DNA of 64,000 nucleotides from Staphylococcus phage vB_SauM-UFV_DC4, in the sequence record MZ779063.1; one strand, 5' to 3'. The notes beneath the pieces are model-generated. The model was given only the letters and a program-made list of their open reading frames with translations. It made no database searches and was not told the origin of the DNA. Position numbers and translations under genes: made by a program. Of this stretch, positions 60,140 through 61,230 are shown piece by piece (position 1 is the first letter of the stretch; every line of letters begins with the position of its first letter).

Positions 60140-61230
60140 CAACTATATAAAATAGATCATATGAATACGTATGATCTTAATTAAATTATATGGTCATTAC
60201 CATATATTTGCGGATCCATTGAACCTAGGCTTTGACGAAGCATAGAGTTCATTGGATCCTATCATTATATTGTCTGTTTAATATTATATTTAATTATCTT
60301 CTTAAATTTTGATTATTATATGAATTATATTTTATTATAAAGCTATATCTTATTAAATTAAGATAATCGTATGAATACGTATGATTTAAATTTATTTACT
60401 AGCAAAATAATTTTTCCAAAATTATTTTCTTATTTGATGATACCACCCTCTGCAGGGAATCTTTTCATAAAGTTTCCCGCAGAGGAGGTTCTAGTCAAAC
60501 ATGTTTGTTTATAATAAAATAAGATTTTTAACTTAAAGTTTTTCTATAATTAATTTATAGGCATTATATGAATACGTATAATGATTATTTATTTATGTGT
60601 AGAAATATGTCCTGATGCCTGTCAGCATCTGGGCTTATTTCTCGATTATATCATATGCAGCTCGGCCCGCTTCCTTATTACTTATGAAGCCGCCTAGCTG
60701 CATTGTATATATTTGTTGGTTTAAGTTAAAAGTTTTAATTCGATTTAAAGTTATTCTATAATTAATTTATAGACATTATATGTATACGTATAATGTAATA
60801 ATTATTTATAATCATTACCATAAATAAATCTCTACGTTTCAACTCCTTCTTTATTATTAAAGAAGGAGGAACACGATAGATCTATTTATCTTTGTTTAAA
60901 TCGAAATTATTCTCTCTATTAGTCATTCTATAATTAGCTTTATAGACATTATATGAATACGTATAATGATTTTAGAATCGTATCCTATTCATTATATTTA
61001 CTCTGCTTTATTTTCGGTGTAATGATTTCTTCATTACACTCCCAGCTGGGACCATTCTTCTCTCGTTCGAAAACCACTTACTCTTTCATCAGGTCCCAGC
61101 TAAAAATAAAGCTTTAAATATAATTTTAGTATTAGAGAAGAATATAGAATGAATTAAATTCATTATAATAATCAACTTTACCGTTACCTATATGATTATA
61201 GGTAACGGTATTTATTTTTTAATTTTTTAT
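60140..61230 (+). repeat. array of five ~200-bp units (cores at 60155-60176, 60365-60386, 60562-60583, 60774-60795, 60947-60968), each a promoter-like 22-bp imperfect palindrome followed by a unit-specific GC-rich hairpin; candidate ncRNA genes of an RT system
   Basis: Cores: GATCATA-TGAATACG-TATGATC; AATCGTA-TGAATACG-TATGATT; CATTATA-TGAATACG-TATAATG (twice, one with TGTATACG). Units 3-5 share TTCTATAATTAATTTATAG upstream, giving TTTATA-N17-TATAAT. Spacings are 210, 197, 212 and 173 bp. Confidence 0.7.
61179..61228 (+). terminator. terminator-like hairpin immediately upstream of the RT gene
   Basis: TACCGTTACCTAT-ATGAT-TATAGGTAACGGTA followed by TTTATTTTTTAATTTTTT. Confidence 0.6.

Follow-up and report, generated by a model that had tools for sequence, protein, structure and literature searches.

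The window analysed here, a 64,000-nt stretch of DNA (GenBank accession number MZ779063.1), is from the Staphylococcus jumbo phage vB_SauM-UFV_DC4 (DC4), identified as the source with a 100 % identical reverse transcriptase (RT). Just upstream of the gene for this RT, which is of the retron type, there is a 1.27-kb gap without credible genes that holds five copies of a short palindromic sequence, referred to below as cores. DC4 belongs to the group comprising S6, PALS_2, Madawaska, MarsHill and LY01 (87-96 % identity over the region), whose members are AR9-like and have genes for RNA polymerases of their own (bioRxiv 10.1101/2020.12.14.422802). The RT is known from genome papers, in which a 1.2-kb region was "hypothesized to contain the ncRNA" (non-coding RNA; bioRxiv 10.1101/2020.12.14.422802 among them). 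A precise anatomy for this 1.2-kb region is provided here; no description of its hairpins, its modules or a natural retron RNA array was found in the searchable literature.

The terminator-like hairpin at the left edge of the gap has a counterpart in SA1 and Machias. It is followed by the motif TTAAATATATATAATA, which resembles or contains TATATTAT, the early-promoter motif reported for AR9 and MarsHill (bioRxiv 10.1101/2020.12.14.422802). An early-promoter-like motif is kept upstream of all Staphylococcus-type arrays, and the DC4 copy is the probable promoter of the whole array. A strong intrinsic terminator lies between the array and the RT gene, and its equivalent is annotated in Machias too.

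Core hairpins

In a preliminary description of the window, five palindromes in direct orientation were reported, with 7-bp arms around an invariant 8-nt centre. All five were located on the plus strand (Table 1). The arms are as described, but the centre is conserved rather than invariant, being TGAATACG in four of the five copies and TGTATACG in copy 4. Nor is the whole centre unpaired, as its outer two bases on each side can pair (T.G and G-C), and a more accurate description of the core is a stem of 9 bp with a loop of 4 nt.

The cores are not random background. In the window, TGAATACG was observed 7 times (1.1 expected), and the occurrences outside the array, at 19783, 23386 and 38157, are all in coding sequence and lack the arms. 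The 13-mer TATGAATACGTAT, allowing up to one mismatch, is found in the window only at the five array sites. There are 42 perfect 7-8-7 inverted repeats in the window, and the TG....CG centre is confined to the array copies. Among 50,697 phage records, the core motif was recovered from this locus in nine related Staphylococcus jumbo phages and from nowhere else. Every one of the related Staphylococcus phages in this collection, nine in all, has four or five cores in the gap, and two metagenomic relatives have three cores each. A pattern scan of IMG/VR for two cores at the array spacing gave 21 matches, none of them with arms, which is consistent with chance.

Compensatory variation of the arms around a fixed centre had been seen in DC4 and was confirmed across 12 related arrays, which contain 16 distinct copies of the core. 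In these copies, 98.6 % of the cells are paired and six of the nine pairs have changed on both sides, compared with 20-59 % pairing in a control in which the partners were slid by 1-3 columns. The three arm pairs of the DC4 genome (Table 1) are joined by TATCATA/TATGATA, GAATATA/TATATTC, AATTTCA/TGAAATT, AATTTTA/TAAAATT and AGTCTTA/TAAGACT, and overall there are at least seven distinct pairs. The apical pairs A-U, U.G and G-C are invariant in the 16 copies, and the loop is NAUA within the Staphylococcus groups. The pairing is also strand-specific. Read on the plus strand, G.U pairs outnumber A.C mismatches by 19 to 0 in the core hairpin (hpB), by 5 to 0 in the hairpin preceding it (hpA) and by 5 to 1 in the helix that encloses both (a1/a2; see below). 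The predicted RNA fold of module 3 is -71.0 kcal/mol on the plus strand (z = -8.5) and -58.5 kcal/mol on the minus strand, a difference of 12.5 in favour of the plus strand. Arms that covary, an apex that is invariant and wobble pairs that fit the plus strand only point to an RNA stem-loop, not a protein-binding DNA palindrome, and we conclude that the cores are very probably RNA stem-loops within a modular, covarying ncRNA.

The 7-8-7 palindrome with its asymmetric centre, the direct orientation and the different numbers of units in different phages would suit DNA sites of a site-specific recombinase (lox, FRT, dif) or a dimeric repressor, which likewise consist of a short inverted repeat around an asymmetric centre. 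However, the arms of such sites are conserved, whereas those of DC4 vary freely while remaining complementary. The presence of at least three arm sequences in one genome indicates that the arms are not the recognition sequence of one protein. The wobble pairs fit only one strand, the U.G pair is invariant, and the hairpin lies inside a larger covarying RNA. When seven neighbouring proteins were scanned against Pfam, no match to a recombinase or repressor family was found. The analogy was abandoned as extremely improbable. Of the associated proposal that cassettes are shuffled, what holds is that the module number differs between phages, from 3 to 7. The variable units are whole RNA modules bounded by a1/a2, not by cores, and this fits duplication or loss of whole modules rather than site-specific shuffling.

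Module architecture

Minimum free energy (MFE) folding was used for the presumed DC4 transcript, and nine related arrays were folded independently. In all ten arrays there is one long AU-rich closing helix, a1/a2, per module, each enclosing a core, and the elements are in the order a1, G, hpA, hpB (the core), GC-rich hairpins, UUUG, a2. The a1 strand ends in UAAA followed by an unpaired G, and a2 starts with UUUA and is preceded by UUUG or UUGG. Among 16 distinct a1/a2 helices, 94.8 % of the cells are paired and eight of the 12 pairs have changed on both sides. The covariation score is 0.60 (0.18 when shuffled), and the four terminal pairs are invariant. The G directly 3' of a1 is present in all 32 Staphylococcus-type modules listed, in the last modules, and in the modules of the more distant arrays of Listeria phage LPJP1 and L013 (our designation, as are L002, L005, L010, L011 and L012 below), and the sequence around it is UAAAG or UUAG.

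The first hairpin, hpA, begins 4 nt past this G and ends one base before hpB; in module 2 the pair that closes it involves 60365, which is also the first base of the core. The hpA stem covaries, with sizes between 5 bp and a 65-nt elaboration. Large insertions are tolerated, and the structure is kept, not the sequence. Together, hpA and hpB form a motif that is confined to these arrays among the 50,697 phage records. Downstream of the core there are 10-40 AU-rich nt and then one or two GC-rich hairpins, which are module-specific and orthologous between phages. The predicted template-like parts are about 100-165 nt long, with one main hairpin in modules 1 and 4, two in modules 2 and 3, and a branched domain in module 5. 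An outer helix encloses modules 2-5, leaving module 1 outside, and in SA1, the Machias group, L011 and L012 this position is also paired, but by different sequences.

The module 1 helices were recovered independently in nine relatives, and a consensus fold of eight module 5 orthologues recovered a1/a2, hpA, hpB and a GGACC/GGUCC helix. In alignment-based consensus folding of whole modules from different phage groups, the template parts were too divergent, and alignment was limited to the conserved 5' part and a few helices. As a measure of possible DNA-level constraint on the templates, G.U pairs were counted; their frequency is 2.8 % in the GC-rich and 5.5 % in the AU-rich helices, a difference to be read with caution, as the two classes differ in composition. 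The array units also differ too much from each other to be reported by Tandem Repeats Finder. With Rfam, the whole window gave no matches at the gathering threshold, and searching the array at E values up to 10 returned only noise (E above 0.8). No tRNA or tmRNA was found in a scan for these.

A further suggestion was that the core is a promoter with an operator. TTTATA-N17-TATAAT does occur in units 3-5, unit 2 has TTAAGA-N16-TATGAT, and all copies point the same way, facing the structured parts. On this reading, every core would be an internal promoter, perhaps combined with an operator, and each module would be transcribed separately; the -35 element would sit in the 3' arm of hpA and the -10 element in that of hpB. 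However, the region shows no enrichment of sigma-70-like sites (22 found, 18.8 expected), and the best-conserved bases, the invariant ATG....CGT, would fall in the promoter spacer. The would-be -10 hexamers vary (TGAAAT, TGCAAT, TGTAAT, TAAGAC) and covary with the opposite arm, which a promoter leaves unexplained. Transcripts from the core onward would also lack a1, the G, hpA and hpB, though the RNA-level covariation spans these. The phage's own early-promoter motif is already found upstream of the array, and in the 50,697 phage records the core motif is upstream of no gene. Internal promoters are accordingly considered improbable. A minus-strand late promoter of the AR9 type (AACA-N6-TW) at TTGTTTGTTT was rejected, because only one of three modules inspected by eye fitted it.

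Some small open reading frames (ORFs) have been called within the arrays. Those at 60371-60514, 60615-60761 and 60953-61117 in DC4, and those annotated in the relatives L002 (3692-4279, CPT_Madawaska_205-207) and L005 (4565-4720, WRM43424.1), all overlap helices that covary as RNA, and conservation from phage to phage is lacking. These ORFs are probably spurious annotations.

Table 1. Positions of array elements and adjacent features in the window
Feature	Position	Strand	Details
Terminator-like hairpin	59978-60008		After upstream 110-aa ORF; left edge of non-coding gap
Early-promoter-like motif	60038-60053	+	TTAAATATATATAATA; 1 base different from TTAAATATATATTATA
Module 1	60059-60301	+	a1 60059-60084; G 60085; hpA 60090-60154 (enlarged); hpB 60155-60176; a2 60277-60301
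Core 1	60155-60176	+	GATCATA TGAATACG TATGATC
Module 1 template-like part	60177-60276	+	GC hairpin 60212-60259
Outer helix, 5' arm	60309-60326	+	Pairs with 61157-61175
Module 2	60328-60521	+	a1 60328-60341; G 60342; hpA 60346-60365; hpB 60365-60386; a2 60508-60521
Core 2	60365-60386	+	AATCGTA TGAATACG TATGATT; one G:T in arms
Module 2 template-like part	60387-60507	+	Hairpins 60404-60428 and 60433-60499
Module 3	60522-60735	+	a1 60522-60537; G 60538; hpA 60543-60561; hpB 60562-60583; a2 60720-60735
Core 3	60562-60583	+	Arms CATTATA/TATAATG; centre TGAATACG
Module 3 template-like part	60584-60719	+	Hairpins 60601-60642 and 60647-60711
Module 4	60739-60905	+	a1 60739-60749; G 60750; hpA 60756-60772; hpB 60774-60795; a2 60895-60905
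Core 4	60774-60795	+	Arms CATTATA/TATAATG; centre TGTATACG
Module 4 template-like part	60796-60894	+	Hairpin 60820-60889
Module 5	60908-61144	+	a1 60908-60918; UUA, then G 60922; hpA 60927-60946; hpB 60947-60968; a2 61133-61144
Core 5	60947-60968	+	Arms CATTATA/TATAATG; centre TGAATACG
Module 5 large domain	60969-61132	+	Sequence-conserved apical loop at about 61054-61091
Outer helix, 3' arm	61157-61175	+	Pairs with 60309-60326
Intrinsic terminator, strong	61179-61210	+	14-bp stem, then T run; between array and RT gene
Retron-type RT, 504 aa	61240-62754	+	N-terminal extension of roughly 200 aa
Partner protein, 274 aa, conserved	62756-63580	+	ORF after RT

The adjacent reverse transcriptase and comparison with retrons

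When the RT was compared with the PADLOC models, the best 25 were all retron RTs (top model RT_II-A, 4.9e-38). The six best matches in PDB were also all retron RTs, and a group II RT reached only 3.6e-4. The protein contains YADD, and its motif 7 sequence KITG aligns with the retron HVTG, making the signature ITG and not the VTG that is used as a criterion for retron RTs (PMC8632793). On these sequence comparisons, the adjacent RT is a member of the retron RT family. No fold match was found for its N-terminal extension, and a search of IMG/VR for relatives of the RT found none. The partner protein had no Pfam, PADLOC or PHROG match and no fold match, and only four clusters were found for it among 1.8 billion representatives. 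Its size varies (264-303 aa in the Staphylococcus type, 587 aa in L013 and 661 aa in LPJP1), in contrast to the RT and the array, which are constant.

Retrons are known as bacterial anti-phage systems in which each RT has one ncRNA. The order a1, unpaired G, two stem-loops, template hairpin(s), a2 is the same in Retron-Eco1 (Ec86) and in the DC4 modules. In Retron-Eco1, the priming guanosine is directly after a1, stem-loop P2 is constrained by structure alone and P3 by structure and by a loop motif that the RT recognizes, and the msd flank beside a2 is intolerant of changes (PMC11754653). The DC4 modules likewise have a first stem-loop conserved only in structure, a second conserved in structure and apex sequence, a conserved a2-side flank and a neighbouring RT of the retron family. 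As both its position and its conservation pattern match, the core hairpin corresponds to P3; hpA would then correspond to P2 and the GC-rich hairpins to the msd template. One difference is that DC4 has five tandem modules per RT, four of them (modules 2-5) within an additional helix, where a retron has a single ncRNA.

We propose that the 1.27-kb gap is probably transcribed early as one phage RNA that starts at the promoter-like motif (60038) and stops at the terminator (ending at 61210), and that this RNA would fold into five tandem msr-msd-like modules. In each, the unpaired G 3' of a1 is a candidate for the guanosine whose 2'-OH primes synthesis, and the UUUG just 5' of a2 would be the template start. 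The RT would recognize the fixed hpB apex (A-U, U.G and G-C closing the NAUA loop) in every module, prime synthesis at the G and copy the template belonging to that module, and the predicted cDNA products would be up to five different small single-stranded DNAs (ssDNAs). Of the three functions offered in the preliminary description, a site for RT priming or recognition is the one that is favoured, with binding of the RT to hpB as a predicted step. In our assessment, it is fairly probable that the modules belong to the retron type of RNA and that the adjacent RT copies them, and we lean slightly, and with less confidence, towards the fixed core apex as the recognition determinant of the RT. Overall, tandem retron-like RNA modules served by one RT are the best explanation, and one that we rate as reasonably probable.

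A number of observations weigh against this explanation. In canonical retrons, msr-msd is directly upstream of the RT gene in the same operon, whereas in DC4 a strong terminator stands between the array and the RT gene, and LPJP1 has its array downstream of the RT. The msd of a retron is a single long hairpin, but several of the DC4 modules have two hairpins or a branched domain. The context of the G, UAAAG or UUAG, differs from the UAGC of Eco1. The RT carries a 200-aa N-terminal domain of unexplained role, the partner protein resembles no known retron effector, and units 3-5 look like sigma-70 promoters. We also note that both the hairpin search and MFE folding allow G.U pairs, which introduces some bias into the strand test, and that the comparative set is small (12 arrays, including five close relatives).

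Alternatively, the hairpins may be handles on the RNA for some protein besides the RT as a polymerase, for example the 274-aa partner or an RNase that would cut the precursor at each repeat, like Cas6 at CRISPR repeats. The modules would then work as RNAs (decoys, guides or scaffolds) and not be reverse-transcribed. The layout of a repeat with variable inserts and the outer helix around modules 2-5 suggest an organized precursor, the partner and the N-terminal domain of the RT are without known function, and the terminator lies between the array and the RT gene. However, the invariant G after a1 and the conserved UUUG before a2, both of which are retron requirements, would be left unexplained. 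Moreover, every array is accompanied by a retron-type RT, whereas the size of the partner varies. We consider RNA handles of this kind unlikely, though less so than either promoters or recombinase sites. CRISPR arrays share with the DC4 array a direct-repeat hairpin that alternates with variable inserts on one precursor RNA. However, the DC4 inserts are structured RNAs of 150-250 nt that are orthologous between phages and not acquired spacers, every unit has a long closing helix to itself, and the locus is without cas genes.

Candidates involving a diversity-generating retroelement were rejected. No second copy of the template-like segments exists in the window, and in each phage genome modules 3 and 5 have a single matching site. 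Korn et al. found no Avd, template repeat or variable repeat (bioRxiv 10.1101/2020.12.14.422802). Searching the rest of the window and the related phage genomes for targets of the template-like parts revealed no similarity.

Retron RNA arrays have been reported so far as engineering for multiplex genome editing, and engineered arrays on a single transcript are functional (PMC10370050). The tandem retron-like modules of DC4 share with these multitrons the presence of several retron RNA units per transcript and one RT, with a different DNA from each unit, which in DC4 is a prediction. The multitrons are synthetic and based on Retron-Eco1 (PMC10370050), whereas the DC4 array is natural, conserved and covarying. 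Natural RT-linked RNA arrays may already have been reported for another RT lineage, DRT.

It is possible, though we stop short of calling it probable, that DC4, a jumbo phage described as lytic, has a natural multi-template retron, in which one early transcript with five modules (three to seven in relatives) uses a shared apex to address one RT and so yields different small ssDNAs. Such ssDNAs might contain uracil, as the DNA of phage S6 is reported to contain uracil and that of its relatives is presumed to (genome papers including bioRxiv 10.1101/2020.12.14.422802). For the phage, they might act as counter-defence decoys, as regulators, or as a weapon against, or means of exclusion of, competing phages. 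If this is correct, the usual anti-phage role of retrons is inverted, one RT can be addressed to several templates via a short shared stem-loop, and the question arises of what use a phage has for several small DNAs. The array would also be a natural design for multiplexed ssDNA production, with compact modules (about 170-240 nt) that have defined handles and might be used in Gram-positive hosts among others.

Related arrays and further observations

The number of modules is five in the S6 group and SA1, four in the Machias group, which lacks module 4, and three to seven across the relatives. The arrays L011, L012, LPJP1 and L013 adjoin RTs of 36-44 % identity and keep the a1-G ... G-a2 architecture, with a G after a1 and a G before a2 in every module listed. 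L011 has three modules with the repeated apex UGWWAGCG, and L012 has about three, with the apices UGAAUACG and UGAAAACG plus an 11-nt loop. In Listeria phage LPJP1, four modules with the apex UGUAAUCG lie downstream of the RT and the 661-aa ORF, and L013 has seven modules with the apex G-UUU-C. The coordinates examined were 3356-8133 in L010 (Listeria phage LPJP1) and 5001-8289 in L013.

Two of the template-like parts have further features. In the module 4 hairpin at 60843-60868, CUCCUUCUUU, which is anti-Shine-Dalgarno-like, pairs with the Shine-Dalgarno-like AAAGAAGGAG. The CUCCUUCUUU arm is also found in SA1, where the opposite arm differs, and mimicry of a ribosome or an mRNA is possible. 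The apical loop of module 5, AUUCUUCUCUCGUUCGAAAACCACUUACUCUUUCAUCA (about 38 nt), is conserved at the sequence level across the S6, SA1 and Machias groups. It has no match elsewhere in the window or in related phage genomes, and its conservation suggests a specific partner or target.

Elsewhere in the window, a 1747-aa ORF at 50576-55819 has no Pfam match. The motif TTAAATATATATTATA is also found at 8893, 11747, 23727, 33121(-) and 43320(-), and 16-nt motifs of this type, which match the AR9/MarsHill early-promoter motif TATATTAT, recur at these positions and at 4433 and 60038, usually with AAAGTGA next. These recurrences provide a ready map of early transcription units in the window.

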